A stretch of DNA of 64,000 nt from an uncultured Candidatus Saccharibacteria bacterium (GTDB taxonomy: Bacteria; Patescibacteriota; Minisyncoccia; UBA6257; WO2-44-18): contig CAZJFE010000001.1 of the NCBI GenBank assembly GCA_964545345.1, forward strand, positions 15,360 to 79,359, read 5' to 3'. Positions within the stretch are counted from its first letter, which is position 1. Each line of letters opens with the position of its first letter. Made by a program: the position numbers and the translations under genes. A model generated the notes under the pieces. The model ran no database searches. It was not told where the DNA came from and saw only the letters and a list, made by a program, of their open reading frames with translations. Shown one piece after another: positions 896 through 6,014 of the stretch.

Positions 896-1285
896 ATGTT
901 TAGCGCTAAACAAATGACTGATAAACAAATTACCGGAAATGATGGCGAGAATTTAGCTTGCGATTTTTTAATCAGAAAGGGATATAAAATTATTGAGCGC
1001 AATTATCTGAAACCATGGGGAGAATTGGATATTATCACCAAAGATCGTAGCGGAGTACTGGTTTTTGTTGAAGTAAAAACGATGCGTTGTTTGCCGGCAA
1101 ACACCGTCTTACAACCTGAAGATAACTTAACTGACGCCAAGCTGAAGAAGCTCCGGCGAACCGCCGAGATGTTTGCCGGTAAACATCCAGAACTAATAGA
1201 TAGCGACCTTGGGTGGCGCATTGATTTAGTAGCGATTTGTTTAACGTCAAACAAAAGTAAAATTAGGCACTATGAAAATGTTTAA
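896..1285 (+). CDS. yraN: YraN-family (UPF0102) predicted endonuclease
   Basis: GENLACDFLIRKGYKIIERNY...GELDIITKD...LVFVEVKT matches the UPF0102/YraN signature; 129 aa. Confidence 0.85.
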   Translation: MFSAKQMTDKQITGNDGENLACDFLIRKGYKIIERNYLKPWGELDIITKDRSGVLVFVEVKTMRCLPANTVLQPEDNLTDAKLKKLRRTAEMFAGKHPELIDSDLGWRIDLVAICLTSNKSKIRHYENV

Positions 1286-1323
1286 CACTTTGTTTAACAG
1301 CGAATTCGGCAATCTTTGCCTTA

Positions 1324-1353
1324 TTGACAAAATGCGGCAAGATGTGCTATAAT
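1324..1353 (+). promoter_or_regulatory. Consensus sigma70-type promoter (TTGACA-18-TATAAT) upstream of the small Gly-tail membrane protein; an AATGCGGCAAG motif lies in the spacer
   Basis: ttgaca at 1324-1329 and tataat at 1348-1353; ORF starts 1411 with aaagggga SD. Confidence 0.65.
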
Positions 1354-1410
1354 CAAACCAGAGTGAAAGTTAAATAACCTCCTGAAATCAACCAAGAGAA
1401 AGGGGATCCC

Positions 1411-1701
1411 ATGGATCATGTTTACAGCTTTTTCTTCGGGGGATGGAAGAACATCCTGGGCTGTATCATCGTAATCTTCGGTCTCTGTTATTTGCAGTGG
1501 CCGGAGGAGACGATGGAGCACCTTCTGGTTGGGGTGGTACAGGTGAGGGATGTAGTTCTCGTACCGCTGTGGCCGGTGCTGAAGCCCCTGCTCCTGATCG
1601 CCGCCGCTATTGCTGCCTTCGTTGTCATGACGAAAGGCGTCACTGGTGGAGGAGGTGGGGGAGGCGGAGGAAAACCGTCTGGAGGGGGCAAGAAGAAGTA
1701 A
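1411..1701 (+). CDS. Small membrane protein (two predicted TM helices) with poly-Gly/Lys C-terminal tail
   Basis: Hydrophobic N-terminal 75 aa then GVTGGGGGGGGGKPSGGGKKK; own promoter, SD and terminator. Confidence 0.6.
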   Translation: MDHVYSFFFGGWKNILGCIIVIFGLCYLQWPEETMEHLLVGVVQVRDVVLVPLWPVLKPLLLIAAAIAAFVVMTKGVTGGGGGGGGGKPSGGGKKK

Positions 1702-1702
1702 G

Positions 1703-1737
1703 CCGCTTAGGTCCTTTCAGGACCGGGCGGTTTTTTA
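1703..1737 (+). terminator. Rho-independent terminator (also abuts the 3' end of the convergent TrmB-like gene)
   Basis: ccgcttaggtcc-tttc-aggaccgggcgg followed by ttttttat. Confidence 0.7.
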
Positions 1738-2514
1738 TCGTTCGGCTTTGTCGTAGAGCGTATAGAAGATACTGCGGAACATCTGTACTATATATTGGTC
1801 TTCTATCAGAACGACAAGAGGCGCCTTAGGCTGCCAGAGTACTACTTTATTAGCAAAGATATTGAACGAGGTTGTAAAAGGGCTAGCGCTTTTAAAAATT
1901 CTAAGCTCGCGCAATTCTTCTTTGGCCACCCCTTTGATCAAGTCAACTCCTTTGCCGGGTAAAACTAAACTTCGCACATTGATTTTCTTAGCGACGCGTC
2001 TTTTCGCCCACTCTCTTTGATGCTCCCAGGAAATGAAAGCCAAAATGTCGGAGGCGGAGCCAAAAAATTCTATCTGGTCTTTGGCTTCGTCTAAAATTTG
2101 TTGATATATCTTTAAAAATTGTTCTTTTCCTTCTAATACTCTTATTTTTGTCGGCGTGGCTCCTTGGCGGTAGAGAGCGAGTAGGTCGGGCATGGCTGAA
2201 GTCAGGTGTTGGCCCAAGTCCGACATAGCTTCCTGTTTTTGGCGCAGTTTTTCCAAAACTAGAGTCGGCGATTCCACGGTGAACGATCGGGAATATTTTT
2301 TATGCTCGCTAAATTTAGCTAGGCCGTGCTTTTCTAGCCCGGCAATCACCTTATAAACGTTCGGACGAGGCATGTTTAGGTGCTTGGCAAGTTCGGAGAT
2401 GGAACTCGGCCCAAGTAGTAGGGAAATGGTGTAGAGGTTTATTTCCAGTTCGCTAAGGCCGAGTTGGCGCAGAGAGTCGTATACATTTTCCTCTACTTGT
2501 TTTAGGTCGGCCAT
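1735..2514 (-). CDS. TrmB-family (sugar-responsive type) transcriptional regulator
   Basis: N-terminal wHTH LGLSELEINLYTISLLLGPSSISELAKHLNMPRPNVYKVIAGLEKHGL; ~259 aa with C-terminal effector-like domain typical of TrmB. Confidence 0.75.
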   Translation of the reverse strand: MADLKQVEENVYDSLRQLGLSELEINLYTISLLLGPSSISELAKHLNMPRPNVYKVIAGLEKHGLAKFSEHKKYSRSFTVESPTLVLEKLRQKQEAMSDLGQHLTSAMPDLLALYRQGATPTKIRVLEGKEQFLKIYQQILDEAKDQIEFFGSASDILAFISWEHQREWAKRRVAKKINVRSLVLPGKGVDLIKGVAKEELRELRIFKSASPFTTSFNIFANKVVLWQPKAPLVVLIEDQYIVQMFRSIFYTLYDKAER

Positions 2515-2568
2515 AGGCTTAAGTGTATATCTTATATATACACTATTAGTATATTAAGGTCAATAGCG

Positions 2569-2597
2569 TTGACAAATAGTTATATTTGGAGTATAAT
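2569..2597 (+). promoter_or_regulatory. Perfect consensus sigma70 promoter (TTGACA-17-TATAAT) driving the hammerhead/small-ORF transcription unit
   Basis: ttgaca 2569-2574, 17-nt spacer, tataat 2592-2597; divergent from the TrmB-like gene. Confidence 0.7.
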
Positions 2598-3010
2598 CCC
2601 CGCAAGAAGTTGAGGGTGGGTTTGGTGGAGTGAGTCATGGTGATGAAGTGGAGCTATGCGGATTCGGCCGGGGCTTTATCAAAAATACATAATTGCCCGA
2701 CGGTGTTCCGAGATCCCATAGCGCTGCAGCATTACCACGTGGAGTACGTTACAACGAACTTCATCATCATGACTCACCTCATCAAATCTTGATGAGGCAG
2801 CACCTTTGAATAGGGAGGCCTAAAATGTGGAACATGTAAAGGCGTAGAGAGCGACCAGAAGAGATGGATCCACAGACCTAAAGAAAAGGGACCGGCAATA
2901 AAAAGTCGGGGAGGTGGGGTAGTAGAGATTGCGAAACCCCACCTCCAGGTTGTTTAACAATTCAGGGTTGCAAGTTACCCCTACCGGACCCTCTTGGACC
3001 GGAAAACTTG

Positions 3011-3066
3011 CTCTGTCCTCGGGTGTGCACCCGGGCTGATGAGCCAGAAATGGCGAAACAGATCGT
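3011..3066 (+). ncRNA. Type III hammerhead ribozyme motif (copy 1)
   Basis: cugUC cleavage site (C3017), stem I hairpin cucgggugugcacccggg, CUGAUGA core 3036-3042, stem II g-cca-GAAA-ugg-c, GAAA 3055-3058, stem III cag/cug; all conserved core nucleotides present. Confidence 0.7.
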
Positions 3067-3099
3067 TCTTCAAACAAAATCAAATTAAGGAGGTAGAAT

Positions 3100-3222
3100 A
3101 TGTTCCTTTTCGGCTACTTCGTTGGCGGGATGGTGGGGTGGGTAGTGGCCAAGCACCACCAGAGGTGGGAGCGATGGTTCTGGCTTCGGGTGGCCCGCCT
3201 GGCTCGCGGGAAGGCTGACTGA
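3100..3222 (+). CDS. Small ORF (40 aa) encoding a hydrophobic TM segment with Arg/Trp-rich cationic tail, 35 nt downstream of hammerhead 1 and behind a strong SD (aaggagg)
   Basis: MFLFGYFVGGMVGWVVAKHHQRWERWFWLRVARLARGKAD; SD 3087-3093, ATG 3100; below the 60-aa cutoff of the ORF track. Confidence 0.4.
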   Translation: MFLFGYFVGGMVGWVVAKHHQRWERWFWLRVARLARGKAD

Positions 3223-3317
3223 TAGTACGCGCGGAGAATAACCGCGATAAAAAACCGTTGGCTACCAACGTTAGCGGGGACCCTGGCGAAAAAATAAACC
3301 AAGGCGCTACCGCAGTG

Positions 3318-3372
3318 GTCTGTCCTCGGATGTGTGTCCGGGCTGATGAGCCAGAAATGGCGAAACAAATTT
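3318..3372 (+). ncRNA. Type III hammerhead ribozyme motif (copy 2)
   Basis: Same core as copy 1 (cugUC, CUGAUGAG-cca-GAAA-ugg-CGAAAC); stem I cucgga-ugugug-uccggg carries a compensatory change (gga/ucc versus ggg/ccc in copy 1) preserving pairing. Confidence 0.65.
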
Positions 3373-3398
3373 CGAGATTGAGCAGAAGGAAGCTAGGA

Positions 3399-3494
3399 AT
3401 GAGTTCCTTAAAAACAGAGGCACGGGTGGGCGCAGCCACCTTGGTGTCTAAAGAGGATCGGCTAGAGCTTTCCGGTTACGGGCGCTCTAGCTAA
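3399..3494 (+). CDS. Small ORF (31 aa, hydrophilic) downstream of hammerhead 2 with an upstream gaaggaag SD; may be non-coding
   Basis: MSSLKTEARVGAATLVSKEDRLELSGYGRSS; same architecture as the first module (ribozyme, ~35 nt, SD, ATG). Confidence 0.2.
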   Translation: MSSLKTEARVGAATLVSKEDRLELSGYGRSS

Positions 3495-3697
3495 TCCGGG
3501 GGTTTCGCCCCTCCGCGTTCTGTTTGGTCGAGCTCGCGTTGCAACGCGAGCGGCCATGCAGACGTCTTAGGCCGGCCGCCTAGGACTGACGGAAACAGCG
3601 GACGTAGGCATATCAGTGCGCGCACATTGATATACCTACTGCTCCCTCCCATTAATTTTAGATGGGTGGAATGGGATCAATTGCGAGACTTACTAAA

Positions 3698-3735
3698 GGT
3701 AGGTGGAGCCAGCCACTCCACTTACCCCTTTTATT
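3698..3735 (+). terminator. Strong Rho-independent terminator ending the ribozyme-containing unit
   Basis: 11-bp stem ggtaggtggag / ctccacttacc (one G-U) then ccttttatt. Confidence 0.65.
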
Positions 3736-3931
3736 CAGTTCATAAAAGCCTAGCTTTTGTGGATTGATAGAGGGTCATTGAAAAAGGAGCTGTGCTCACC
3801 GAGCGCGCATACAAACCAAAAGCCGAATGGTTATGGTGTATGCCGTTGATGTGGGCAGTGCTTGCGGGCTCAACTCGCGCAGCTTCTTTCTTCAACCCCC
3901 TTTCAGGAGACCCCCTATGTTCTAGACGCGC

Positions 3932-3964
3932 AACCCGCTCTTATTCTATGGGCGGGTTTTTTGT
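3932..3964 (+). terminator. Rho-independent terminator upstream of the YvcK-like gene
   Basis: aacccgc-13 nt loop-gcgggtt then tttttgtt. Confidence 0.5.
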
Positions 3965-4011
3965 TGCCGGTTGTCGGCTGTTCGCCGATCAATTACTATA
4001 TATGTAACAAA

Positions 4012-4965
4012 ATGAAGGCCTCGAAAAAGATCGTAGTAATCGGCGGGGGAACCGGAATTTTCCCGGTATTACTCGGGTTAAAGAAGTATTTTCAGGACAT
4101 TACCGTGGTGGTAACAACCGCTGACGAAGGAGGGTCCTCCGGGATCCTTAGGGAAGAATTTGGTATTTTGCCTCCCGGAGATCTTCGCCGCGCCTTGGTC
4201 GCCCTTTCTTCTTCCGATAATAAAATCTTGTCGGAACTTTTTAATTATCGTTTTCAGGAGGGGAGCGGTCTTTCCGGGCACAGCTTTGGAAACCTCCTGA
4301 TCACCGCCTTGGAACGGATTACCGGAGGATTTGATCGGGCTATAGAAGAGGCGGGGAAAATACTTTCGGTTCAGGGAAGGGTGTTGCCGGTTTCTCTGCA
4401 GAAGTGCTTCCTGATGGCCGAATTGGAGAATGGAGAAATCATAAAAGGGGAGAGGAACATTGATATCCCGAAACATGATGGTCATTTGCGTATCAAGAAA
4501 GTTTGGTTGAAGCCGGAAGCGAAAATTAATCCACAGGCGCAGAAAGCGATCCTGGCCGCGGATGGGATTATCATTGGCCCCGGTGACTTGTATACGAGTT
4601 TATTGCCAAATCTGCTGGTAAACGGAGTTTCTCAAGCCCTTAGAAAATCTAAAGGTAGGAAAATATATTTTGTAAACTTGATGACTAAGTTTGGAGAAAC
4701 GCACGGTTTCCGCGCTTCAGACTTTTCTAAAACGATTGAGGAATATTTAGGAAGAGATGTTTTGGATTACGTGGTAATTAATAAAGCCCAGCCCTCGCTG
4801 ATGCGCTTTAAGCCATACGCGAAAGAGAACTCCCAATTTGTGGAAGCTGATCTGAATAATTTTGATCGCAGACCGATTCCGGTAGTAGTTGATCTATTAA
4901 GGAAGAGCGGGTTTATCCGCCATGATCCTGAAAAGGTGGCAGCAGCGATCAAGACGCTAATTTAG
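4012..4965 (+). CDS. YvcK/CofD-like family protein (UPF0052, gluconeogenesis-factor-like)
   Basis: KIVVIGGGTGIFPVLLGLKKY...VVTTADEGGSSGILREEFGILPPGDLRRALVAL is the YvcK signature; start moved to internal ATG 4012 because the N-terminal extension overlaps a terminator. Confidence 0.8.
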   Translation: MKASKKIVVIGGGTGIFPVLLGLKKYFQDITVVVTTADEGGSSGILREEFGILPPGDLRRALVALSSSDNKILSELFNYRFQEGSGLSGHSFGNLLITALERITGGFDRAIEEAGKILSVQGRVLPVSLQKCFLMAELENGEIIKGERNIDIPKHDGHLRIKKVWLKPEAKINPQAQKAILAADGIIIGPGDLYTSLLPNLLVNGVSQALRKSKGRKIYFVNLMTKFGETHGFRASDFSKTIEEYLGRDVLDYVVINKAQPSLMRFKPYAKENSQFVEADLNNFDRRPIPVVVDLLRKSGFIRHDPEKVAAAIKTLI

Positions 4966-4967
4966 GG

Positions 4968-6014
4968 ATGAAGTACAAATTTTTTACCAGCTCTGAAAAA
5001 GCATGGCAGGCGATGCAGGAGGCGGCGGAGTCGGCCAAGAAATCAATTTTCCTGGAAAGTTTTATTTTGACCGATGATCATAAGACGCATAAGTTTTGGC
5101 AGGTCTTGAAAGCGAAGGCCAGAGAGGGGGTGAAGGTAAAAATAATTGTGGATCGGGCGGGGAGTTTTTGGTTTGGCACGATTGATCGCGAGGCCTTCGC
5201 CAGAGCCGGCGCTGAAGTTTTGATCTACAACCGTTGGATTAATCACACACACAGGAAACTGCTGATCGTGGATGAAGCAATTGGTTTTATTGGCGGCGTG
5301 AATATCCGCGGCGAATACGCGGACTGGCTAGATTTGCATTTGCGAACCACCGGACTTCTAGTCAAGCGGCTACTTAGCTCTTTTTCTCAAATATACTTTT
5401 TGTCCGGCGGCCGCGATGAATCGGTAACCGGTTTTCGCAGATGGCGAATTCCTAAGCTGAACGAATCTATTTATCGAGCGAAAACTTGGTTGATTGAGCG
5501 TTGGCCGCTCCATGATAAACGCGCTTTCGTTAACTATTACAAGAAAAAATGCGCTGAGGCGCAGAAAAGCATCAGAATCGTCACACCTTATTTTGTTCCA
5601 CAACCCTGGTTATTCAGGTCTCTGAAAAGAGCGGCCAAGCGCGGGGTGGCAGTAGAAGTTATTTTACCGGCGGACACCGATCACGCGTTAGTTCATCTAG
5701 CGCATCGATATATCATGAAAAGTCTGAGCCCAATGATTAAGTTTATGATGATGCCGACCATGAACCATGCCAAGGTTCTGTTAGTGGATGATCAAGAGGG
5801 GCTAGTCGGATCTAATAATATTGATGGTCAAAGTTTTAATTTTAACTTGGAGGCCAGTGTAGTCTTTCAGCGAAAAGACATGATAGGGGATCTGCGGACG
5901 ATTTTGGATGATTGGAGAAAAAAATCCACCCCATTTTCAGGGGCGGATTTTAAGTGGCGCTGGTACGATCGGATATTAGAATTCCTAGTAGGGCTAGTCT
6001 ATCCGATACTCTAA
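4968..6014 (+). CDS. Phospholipase D-family protein with two HKD motifs (cardiolipin-synthase-like)
   Basis: [19 protein letters not shown] and [20 protein letters not shown] are HxK(x)4D motifs. Confidence 0.8.

Follow-up and report, generated by a model that had tools for sequence, protein, structure and literature searches.

To our knowledge, the biological role of most bacterial hammerhead ribozymes is still unknown. Perreault et al. (2011, PLoS Comput Biol; PMC3088659) described hammerheads that flank individual genes in prophages and bacterial genomes, one of them 13 nt 5' of a start codon, and proposed that they process long transcripts into single-gene mRNAs. In Escherichia coli, the engineered element RiboJ, which joins the hammerhead of the satellite RNA of tobacco ringspot virus (sTRSV) to a spacer hairpin, raises protein 2–10 fold and transcript about 2 fold (PMC6206723), and in chrysovirids and fusarivirids hammerheads in the 5' untranslated regions (UTRs) enable translation initiation (bioRxiv 10.1101/2024.05.16.594327). 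Here, we analyze a stretch of 64,000 nt (the window; assembly GCA_964545345.1, contig CAZJFE010000001.1, positions 15,360 to 79,359) in which an open reading frame (ORF) of 40 codons, ORF40, lies between two predicted type III hammerheads, HH1 and HH2. On balance, we favor the reading that ORF40 is a genuine small membrane-peptide gene and that the hammerheads form a generic processing cassette of the 5' UTR or intercistronic space, with no dedicated toxin gate. The features on which this reading draws are the following.

3010–3066, + strand: HH1, type III hammerhead, predicted cut after C3017 (Rfam family RF00008, our own model, covariation)
3018–3324, + strand: predicted double-cleavage product of 307 nt, from the predicted cleavage sites of HH1 and HH2
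3067–3086, + strand: A-rich linker TCTTCAAACAAAATCAAATT between HH1 and the Shine-Dalgarno (SD) sequence, unpaired in the minimum free energy (MFE) fold
3087–3093, + strand: SD sequence AAGGAGG, with a 6-nt spacer to the ATG of ORF40; kept in the related contig L005
3100–3222, + strand: ORF40, ATG 3100–3102, TGA 3220–3222, 40 codons, product MFLFGYFVGGMVGWVVAKHHQRWERWFWLRVARLARGKAD
3232–3274, + strand: two hairpins 3' of ORF40, GCGCGGagaataaCCGCG and AACGTTGGctaCCAACGTT, in the MFE fold of the 307-nt RNA
3317–3373, + strand: HH2, type III hammerhead, predicted cut after C3324 (RF00008, our own model)
3399–3494, + strand: ORF31 (MSSLKTEARVGAATLVSKEDRLELSGYGRSS, 31 aa), 33 nt 3' of the HH2 core, with SD-like GAAGGAAG

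Two predicted hammerheads and the frame between them

Both ribozymes have complete catalytic cores (CUGAUGA, G10.1-C11.1, GAAA, C1.1-G2.1 and a GUC triplet). The RF00008 model, run in E-value mode, matches HH1 at 3010–3064 with 41.3 bits (E = 4e-7) and HH2 at 3321–3367 with 28.9 bits (E = 1e-3), against a gathering threshold of 48.5 bits; the 64-kb window contains no Rfam family at gathering threshold and no tRNA gene. Our own covariance model (13 hammerheads) gives 78.5 bits for HH1 and 76.2 bits for HH2, and a scan of the window with the same model returns exactly these two. For covariation we used a lineage set of nine hammerheads, consisting of HH1, HH2, that of L005 and those of the metagenome-assembled genomes (MAGs) L057–L062, which belong to the candidate phyla radiation (CPR) and DPANN. 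Stems I and II are 100% paired in all nine, seven pairs are changed on both sides, and the observed covariation score was reached by none of 500 shuffles, so the helices behave as those of type III hammerheads. Stem I is partly fixed by the search pattern; stem II is free of it, and three of its four pairs covary. Compensatory change is also seen between HH1 and HH2, where stem I reads GGG/CCC and GGA/UCC, respectively, and between HH1 and its counterpart in L005, where stem II has gone from CCA/UGG to CUC/GAG and the 3' strand is altered (ACCGAUCG). The initial annotation had placed ORF40 directly behind a self-cleaving ribozyme, and the RF00008 match together with the stem covariation makes that ribozyme a credible prediction. 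Judged by their sequences, HH1 and HH2 would be expected to cleave in vivo. HH1, ORF40 and HH2 follow one another on the + strand, which is the tandem bracketing of Perreault et al. (2011).

A type III hammerhead leaves the ribozyme body on the downstream fragment, and a double cut would therefore release an RNA of 307 nt. From its 5'-OH to its 2',3'-cyclic phosphate, this product would carry two hammerhead hairpins, the A-rich linker, the SD sequence, ORF40 and the two 3' hairpins, and its ends pair with each other in the MFE fold. The stretch ATCGTTCTTCAAACAAAATCAAA (3062–3084), which overlaps the linker, is identical in L005, where it also lies between the ribozyme core and the SD sequence. 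In the mechanism that we propose, transcription would start from a consensus sigma-70 promoter at 2569–2597, with ORF40 as the first cistron; HH1 would cut after C3017 and remove a structured leader of about 410 nt, and HH2 would cut after C3324 and set the 3' end. The result would be an insulated, monocistronic mRNA of 307 nt with a hairpin-capped 5' end, in which the unpaired A-rich linker would present the SD sequence of ORF40 and the hairpins at 3232–3274 may act as 3' stabilizers. The cassette would in this way fix the ends of the mRNA, shield it from structure further upstream and probably make it more stable; that cleavage stabilizes or insulates the mRNA is suggested by analogy with RiboJ. 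We also considered a cleavage-dependent unmasking of the SD sequence, which is unsupported: a weak hairpin between the SD sequence and codons 2–3 is present in the predicted folds both before and after cleavage.

ORF40 starts 35 nt 3' of HH1 (cut 3017|3018), and its TGA stop codon is followed directly by TAG. The ORF at 3100–3222 and its near-consensus SD sequence at 6-nt spacing had been proposed from the start, and both are read in the sequence as described. The frame is annotated as hypothetical protein G01um101419_602 in Parcubacteria group bacterium Gr01-1014_19, and the identical sequence is present in two other assemblies. In L005, the sole relative found, the frame is kept open over the first 27 codons, up to the contig end. 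The 27 aligned codons contain 13 substitutions, of which eight are synonymous and five are conservative amino-acid changes (F4L, M11L, V16A, H19N and R22K); eight of the 13 fall at third positions (Fisher p = 0.023 for the bias), with a dN/dS of ~0.10. The frame thus shows a synonymous bias wherever it can be compared. Codon usage gives a log-likelihood ratio of +7.8 bits in frame and of −13.4 and −9.8 bits in the other two frames; off-frame chunks of real genes never attain the in-frame value. In simulations of 1.49-kb regions with matched dinucleotide content, chance produced an ATG ORF of at least 40 aa behind a strong SD sequence in 3.2% of cases, and in 0.1% at a fixed point 25–60 nt 3' of a ribozyme. 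ORF40 is probably a real and translated gene on these grounds, and its peptide is likely to be lineage-restricted and under purifying selection.

Several observations weigh against this reading. Both HH1 and HH2 score below the Rfam gathering threshold, as do the lineage members at 29.8–43.5 bits, a shortfall that arises because these hammerheads have a short stem II loop and a 5-bp stem III. The MFE fold of each isolated hammerhead is not the catalytic fold, and the stem III of HH2 is weak in itself (3 bp, a C/A mismatch and three weak pairs). The conservation of the frame comes from one partial relative and 27 codons, and all four contigs of the L005-type organism end at or before codon 27. 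The ORF40 peptide matches only itself, both among 5.8 billion protein clusters in a word-indexed search and among 1.84 billion representatives in an exhaustive phmmer search, and a back-translated pattern scan of metagenome contigs returned the L005 contig only. The G+C content at third codon positions (GC3) of ORF40 is atypical, at 0.82 versus 0.50 for the long genes of the genome, a value consistent with a G+C-rich inserted module of different origin or constraints. Finally, the stabilizing or insulating effect is carried over from synthetic biology in E. coli.

Part of this evidence would also suit a fortuitous ORF40, in which case the 307-nt segment between the ribozymes would be a non-coding RNA or a spacer, and the similarity to L005 would reflect conservation at the RNA level or recent ancestry. 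The surrounding 1.5 kb is dense in structured non-coding RNA, the peptide is an orphan with an atypical GC3, the comparison covers one relative and 27 codons, and a chance rate of 3.2% is not negligible. However, the changes cluster at third positions and those that alter an amino acid are conservative, whereas the adjoining hammerhead changes by compensatory pairs. Codon usage suits the ORF40 frame only, the consensus SD sequence has the spacing also seen where this ribozyme lineage precedes bona fide ORFs, and the 307-nt RNA is no stabler than shuffled sequence (z = −0.74). Hence, we regard a fortuitous ORF as unlikely and retain ORF40 as a small gene within a processing cassette.

The cassette in other genomes and possible fates of the excised RNA

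A hammerhead pattern specific to this lineage matched six loci in GTDB genomes, all of them CPR/DPANN MAGs (Saccharibacteria, Patescibacteria, Giovannonibacteria and a Pacearchaeota-labelled bin), and had no matches in viral contigs. In seven of the nine lineage hammerheads, an SD sequence and a start codon follow 56–71 nt after CUGAUGA. Hammerheads of the CPR lineage and similar ones in phages stand about 20–45 nt 5' of the start codons of unrelated genes. The usual spacer in the lineage cassettes is an A-rich linker of the form GTTCTTT...AAAA...AAGGAG, and linkers akin to that of the window follow the hammerheads in L057, L058 and L062. The ORFs behind the lineage hammerheads are mutually unrelated (100 aa; 97 aa and Cys-rich; 88 aa; >146 aa). 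Because the same ribozyme lineage precedes unrelated ORFs, the ribozyme is not tied to the ORF40 peptide, and the specific coupling to a toxic peptide suggested by the initial annotation finds no support in these loci.

On the Patescibacteria contig JBBTRE010000014.1, two hammerheads with 410 nt between their cleavage sites alternate with ORFs of 88 and 97 codons (HH-ORF88-HH-ORF97), a layout that mirrors the HH1-ORF40-HH2-ORF31 of the window. ORF31 has a codon log-likelihood ratio of +4.7 bits in frame and of −27.9 and −19.8 bits in the other frames, and none of the three assemblies listed has it as a called gene; its sequence makes it a possible second ribozyme-preceded cistron. The neighbors of the L057 and L058 cassettes are housekeeping genes (aspartyl/lysyl- and seryl-tRNA synthetases, alanine racemase), and these loci are not prophages.

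In the Saccharibacteria/Patescibacteria cassettes of L057 (~1555–1600 and ~2014–2050) and L062 (− strand, ~262–300), the genes before and after the hammerhead share a terminal TAAGGTTTCCGGAGGATTTCCYAAAAATCC hairpin, which points to modular cassettes whose boundaries are conserved and whose ORFs vary.

A looser hammerhead pattern returned 48 phage contigs with 40 distinct hammerheads, and an ATG ORF of at least 30 aa starts 10–60 nt 3' of 33 of them, compared with a control rate of 31%. The initial annotation knew of no described example of a gene placed in this way behind a self-cleaving ribozyme. That statement does not hold, because the clusters of Perreault et al. (PMC3088659) and the wider survey, with 33 of 40 phage and seven of nine CPR-lineage hammerheads, make a ribozyme followed by a gene a known kind of layout. 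What is new here is the host group, the recurrent linker-SD cassette and the very small orphan cistron. In the searchable literature, we found no mention of hammerheads together with Parcubacteria, Patescibacteria or the candidate phyla radiation.

Tandem hammerheads also invite a reading in which the unit excised by HH1 and HH2 is circularized, by hammerhead self-ligation or by an RtcB-type ligase, to give a DNA-encoded coding circular RNA of 307 nt. Closely spaced tandem ribozymes yield circular RNAs in plants, animals and probably totiviruses (bioRxiv 10.1101/2024.05.16.594327), and here two type III hammerheads stand on the same strand 307 nt apart. The 3' end of the excised RNA, GUGGUCUGU, pairs at nine positions with the 3' strand of HH1 stem III, ACAGAUCGU (3315–3324 with 3059–3067; four of the pairs are G-U). 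The 5' strand of HH2 and the 3' strand of HH1 pair better with each other than in either hammerhead's own stem III, and the junction sequence alone has a canonical hammerhead as its MFE fold, whereas the isolated genomic copies do not. However, the four extra pairs are mostly G-U, with an estimated chance probability of ~2%, the other CPR tandem pair has no special cross-pairing, and Perreault et al. searched for circular products of bacterial tandem hammerheads without finding any (PMC3088659). Zeta-like RNAs are recognized by a size that is a multiple of three, a stop-free ORF and a stable, rod-like fold (bioRxiv 10.1101/2024.05.16.594327); 307 nt is no multiple of three, and the unit has two stops and no rod-like or unusually stable fold (z = −0.74). 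It does not resemble a retrozyme either, as its repeat of 50–52 nt is the ribozyme itself and the element is single-copy in the window. We therefore consider circularization highly improbable, and give an equally slim chance to an end-to-end joining of the 307-nt product into a chromosomally encoded circular mini-mRNA of a CPR bacterium, SD-led and specifying a membrane-active peptide. If true, such a mini-mRNA would be a bacterial, protein-coding counterpart of retrozyme and viroid-like circles and would connect the accessory islands of CPR genomes with the world of ribozyme-bearing circular RNAs.

The peptide and the toxin question

Residues 1–17 of the ORF40 product are hydrophobic and Gly-rich (Kyte-Doolittle mean 1.81) and short for a membrane span, and the 23 C-terminal residues, 18–40, are amphipathic and Arg/Trp-rich with a hydrophobic moment of ~0.5. 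The peptide has a net charge of +5 and four Trp, and AlphaFold models it as one helix over residues 2–39 (pLDDT 82.8). Hydropathy, charge and AlphaFold model agree with the single hydrophobic helix and cationic Arg/Trp tail that had been described at the outset. By hydropathy and helix prediction, ORF40 belongs with the small (<60 aa), hydrophobic membrane peptides that include the type I toxins, and its shape fits these and also many harmless small membrane proteins. The product would be expected to insert in the membrane, anchored there by its N-terminus, and our best guess at its role is a small membrane-associated accessory protein. As a candidate member of the small-protein repertoire of CPR bacteria, about which little is known, the peptide is of modest value.

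Small peptides in which one hydrophobic helix is joined to a cationic tail include many type I toxins and membrane-active peptides, and the mRNAs of type I toxins (Hok, TisB, Ldr, Fst, ZorO, DinQ and AapA1) have a long structured 5' region and are processed before translation. The initial annotation saw in ORF40 a peptide resembling type I toxins or phage lysis and antimicrobial peptides, whose translation or mRNA stability would be gated by hammerhead processing. On such a reading, cleavage might, for example, activate an otherwise inert primary transcript, much as in the 5' processing of tisB, zorO and dinQ. The short hydrophobic helix, amphipathic Arg/Trp tail and net charge of +5 of the ORF40 peptide would suit this, the gene lies within an accessory insertion, HH1 would remove a long structured leader, and small one-helix peptides with basic tails stand behind several phage hammerheads, such as L043 (49 aa) and L048 (40 aa).

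However, a consensus-promoter scan of 2300–4200 showed no sigma-70-like antisense promoter near ORF40; the sole sigma-70-like promoter on the minus strand in this interval is that of the divergent TrmB gene, at 2575–2548. A terminator-like hairpin lies on the minus strand at 3270–3256, and the promoter scan shows no promoter upstream of it. ORF40 has no significant match in Pfam, NCBIfam, PADLOC, PHROGs or PDB sequences (best DUF3789, E = 0.43), and so no homology to a toxin, holin, defence or phage family. No phage match was obtained by blastn of the 1.5-kb region against phage genomes, there was no PHROG hit, and the 2.25-kb module around ORF40 has no endolysin, immunity or transporter gene such as a lysis cassette would hold. 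Ordinary soluble proteins are also encoded behind this ribozyme cassette, so there is nothing toxin-specific in the logic of the ribozyme. In the predicted folds, the SD sequence is only weakly paired and cleavage does not alter this pairing, and the hydrophobic stretch is 17 residues only. With no antisense promoter, no family match and no phage or lysis context, the assignment as a toxin, lysis or antimicrobial peptide is not supported, and we judge a hammerhead-gated toxin distinctly unlikely. A membrane-associated accessory protein behind a generic cassette remains our preferred account.

Among the phage loci, L024, L032, L043 and L048 encode one-helix peptides of 30–49 aa, 18–51 nt behind their hammerheads. 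The basic tail of the L043 peptide resembles that of ORF40.

The TrmB-linked insertion and comparison with known systems

ORF40 and its ribozymes lie in a larger module, whose main features are given here.

1701–3948, no strand assigned: accessory insertion of ~2.25 kb, with TrmB and the divergent ribozyme/small-ORF unit, between a 96-aa gene and CofD/YvcK
1735–2514, − strand: TrmB-family transcriptional regulator (Pfam PF01978), divergent from the ribozyme unit and within the insertion
2523–2543, no strand assigned: palindrome GTGTATAT-N5-ATATACAC, between the TrmB start and the divergent promoters
2569–2597, + strand: sigma-70-type promoter TTGACA-17-TATAAT, 12/12 matches in the promoter scan; kept in L005 and L006
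2604–2812, + strand: structured 5' leader RNA, with a closing helix of ~30 bp around a conserved GGCUUUAUCAAAAAUA loop region

Window positions 956–1700 align with 1944–2665 of contig L065, and positions 3949–4974 with 2680–3710. Because the flanks align to L065, the closest genome found, which has 2666–2679 at this place, window positions 1701–3948 constitute an insertion. CofD is 93% identical in L065 and 80% identical in L066, both of which are without the TrmB/ribozyme module; in L065 the 96-aa gene comes directly before CofD, and in L066 a DUF5701 gene lies between them. The insertion is bounded by terminator-like hairpins, with similar terminator sequences, GGGCGGTTTTTTAT and GGGCGGGTTTTTTGT, at its two ends. 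The neighbors in the window are NifU, UPF0102, TrmB, CofD/YvcK, PLD, RecA and FtsK, and the 2.25-kb module holds only TrmB, non-coding RNA and small ORFs. From TrmB to CofD/YvcK (4012–4965), 1.5 kb are without a long ORF and have a G+C content of 0.54–0.58, versus ~0.46 in the flanking genes. L065 carries LAGLIDADG and GIY-YIG genes nearby instead of the module.

TrmB has >300 CPR homologues. Elsewhere these keep the divergent promoter and the palindrome and their cargo varies by genome, and for this reason ORF40 is best described as cargo of a TrmB-linked accessory module. Similar palindromes occupy the same place in L003, L005, L007, L068 and L069, and the palindrome at 2523–2543 is probably the operator of TrmB, for which it is our candidate. 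The promoter at 2569–2597 is proposed to drive the leader, the hammerheads and the small ORFs. The nearest relative, whose TrmB is 83% identical, is represented by contigs L005, L006, L063 and L064.

Contigs L006 and L063 share an end point, located 590 nt upstream of the TrmB start; in the L006 alignment, this point falls inside HH1 stem II. The ends of all four contigs near the hammerhead and ORF40 look like an assembly break at the locus.

The leader has counterparts in L005 (425–632, − strand) and L007 (5735–5925, − strand). In L005, a leader of 215 nt is kept at ~93% identity with a 1-nt indel, which excludes a coding sequence. Compared with L007, ten pairs of the closing helix are changed on both sides, and the helix encloses the conserved segment GGCUUU(U)AUCAAAAAUA. 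The 817-nt precursor folds with z = −6.0. The leader has no Rfam match, and the TrmB loci L068 and L069, which are more distant, lack it; we consider it a candidate for a new non-coding RNA or riboregulator. Cleavage by HH1 would detach it from the ORF40 mRNA.

A further repeated module precedes small ORFs at window positions 3698–3790, in L003 (− strand, ~5130–5060, 3925–3840 and 3735–3640) and in L007 (− strand, ~5570–5510). Its parts are, in order, a GC hairpin, CCTTT(C)TYCAGYYCAT, a second hairpin, GGTTCTTTTGAAAA and an SD sequence. The ends of the second hairpin covary (CCAG...CTGG versus TCAG...TTGA), and the 3' part resembles the post-hammerhead linker of L057 and L062. We considered another known ribozyme class for the copies in L003, and there was no Rfam match up to E 10. 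The module could be a terminator/leader unit or an unrecognized processing element.

Of the systems with which this locus can be compared, the clusters of Perreault et al. (2011) share with it several nearby hammerheads on one strand that bracket an individual gene, and the 40 surveyed phage hammerheads have the same layout as those clusters. Prophage or integrase neighborhoods are frequent, although not obligatory, in that group. Here, in contrast, the hammerheads belong to a TrmB-linked insertion on the chromosome of a member of the Parcubacteria (CPR), with housekeeping genes on both sides and no integrase or phage genes, and the bracketed gene has only 40 codons.

The type I toxins Hok, TisB, Ldr, Fst, ZorO, DinQ and AapA1 are, like ORF40, very small, with one hydrophobic helix and a charged tail. 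ORF40 differs from them in having no sequence relationship and, in the promoter scan, no antisense RNA gene or promoter; processing would here be autocatalytic and constitutive instead of RNase-dependent. Retrozymes, Zeta-like RNAs and viroid-like circles resemble the 307-nt unit in that tandem hammerheads on the same strand enclose 186–1000 nt, and the ends of the unit can rebuild a hammerhead by pairing. In contrast to this group, the unit has stop codons and lacks a multiple-of-three size, a rod-like fold and long terminal repeats, and it is single-copy and a bacterial SD-led cistron.

The hammerheads of chrysovirids and fusarivirids are self-cleaving ribozymes directly 5' of an ORF, as HH1 is predicted to be, and their cleavage is linked to translation. 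However, these are type I hammerheads of eukaryotic RNA viruses with cap-independent translation, whereas the HH1 system is bacterial, DNA-encoded, type III and SD-dependent. RiboJ, like HH1, places a hammerhead between the promoter or leader and the ribosome-binding site, removes the upstream context and gives the mRNA a structured end with a 5'-OH. RiboJ is engineered and has a designed hairpin as the spacer between ribozyme and SD sequence, whereas the HH1 cassette is natural and has an unpaired A-rich linker in that place. The CPR loci present a compact and recurrent cassette of type III hammerhead, A-rich linker, SD sequence and ATG before unrelated small genes in ultra-small bacteria, and with them one can test directly whether natural ribozymes generate mRNA ends and insulate transcripts, in the way that RiboJ does in synthetic circuits.

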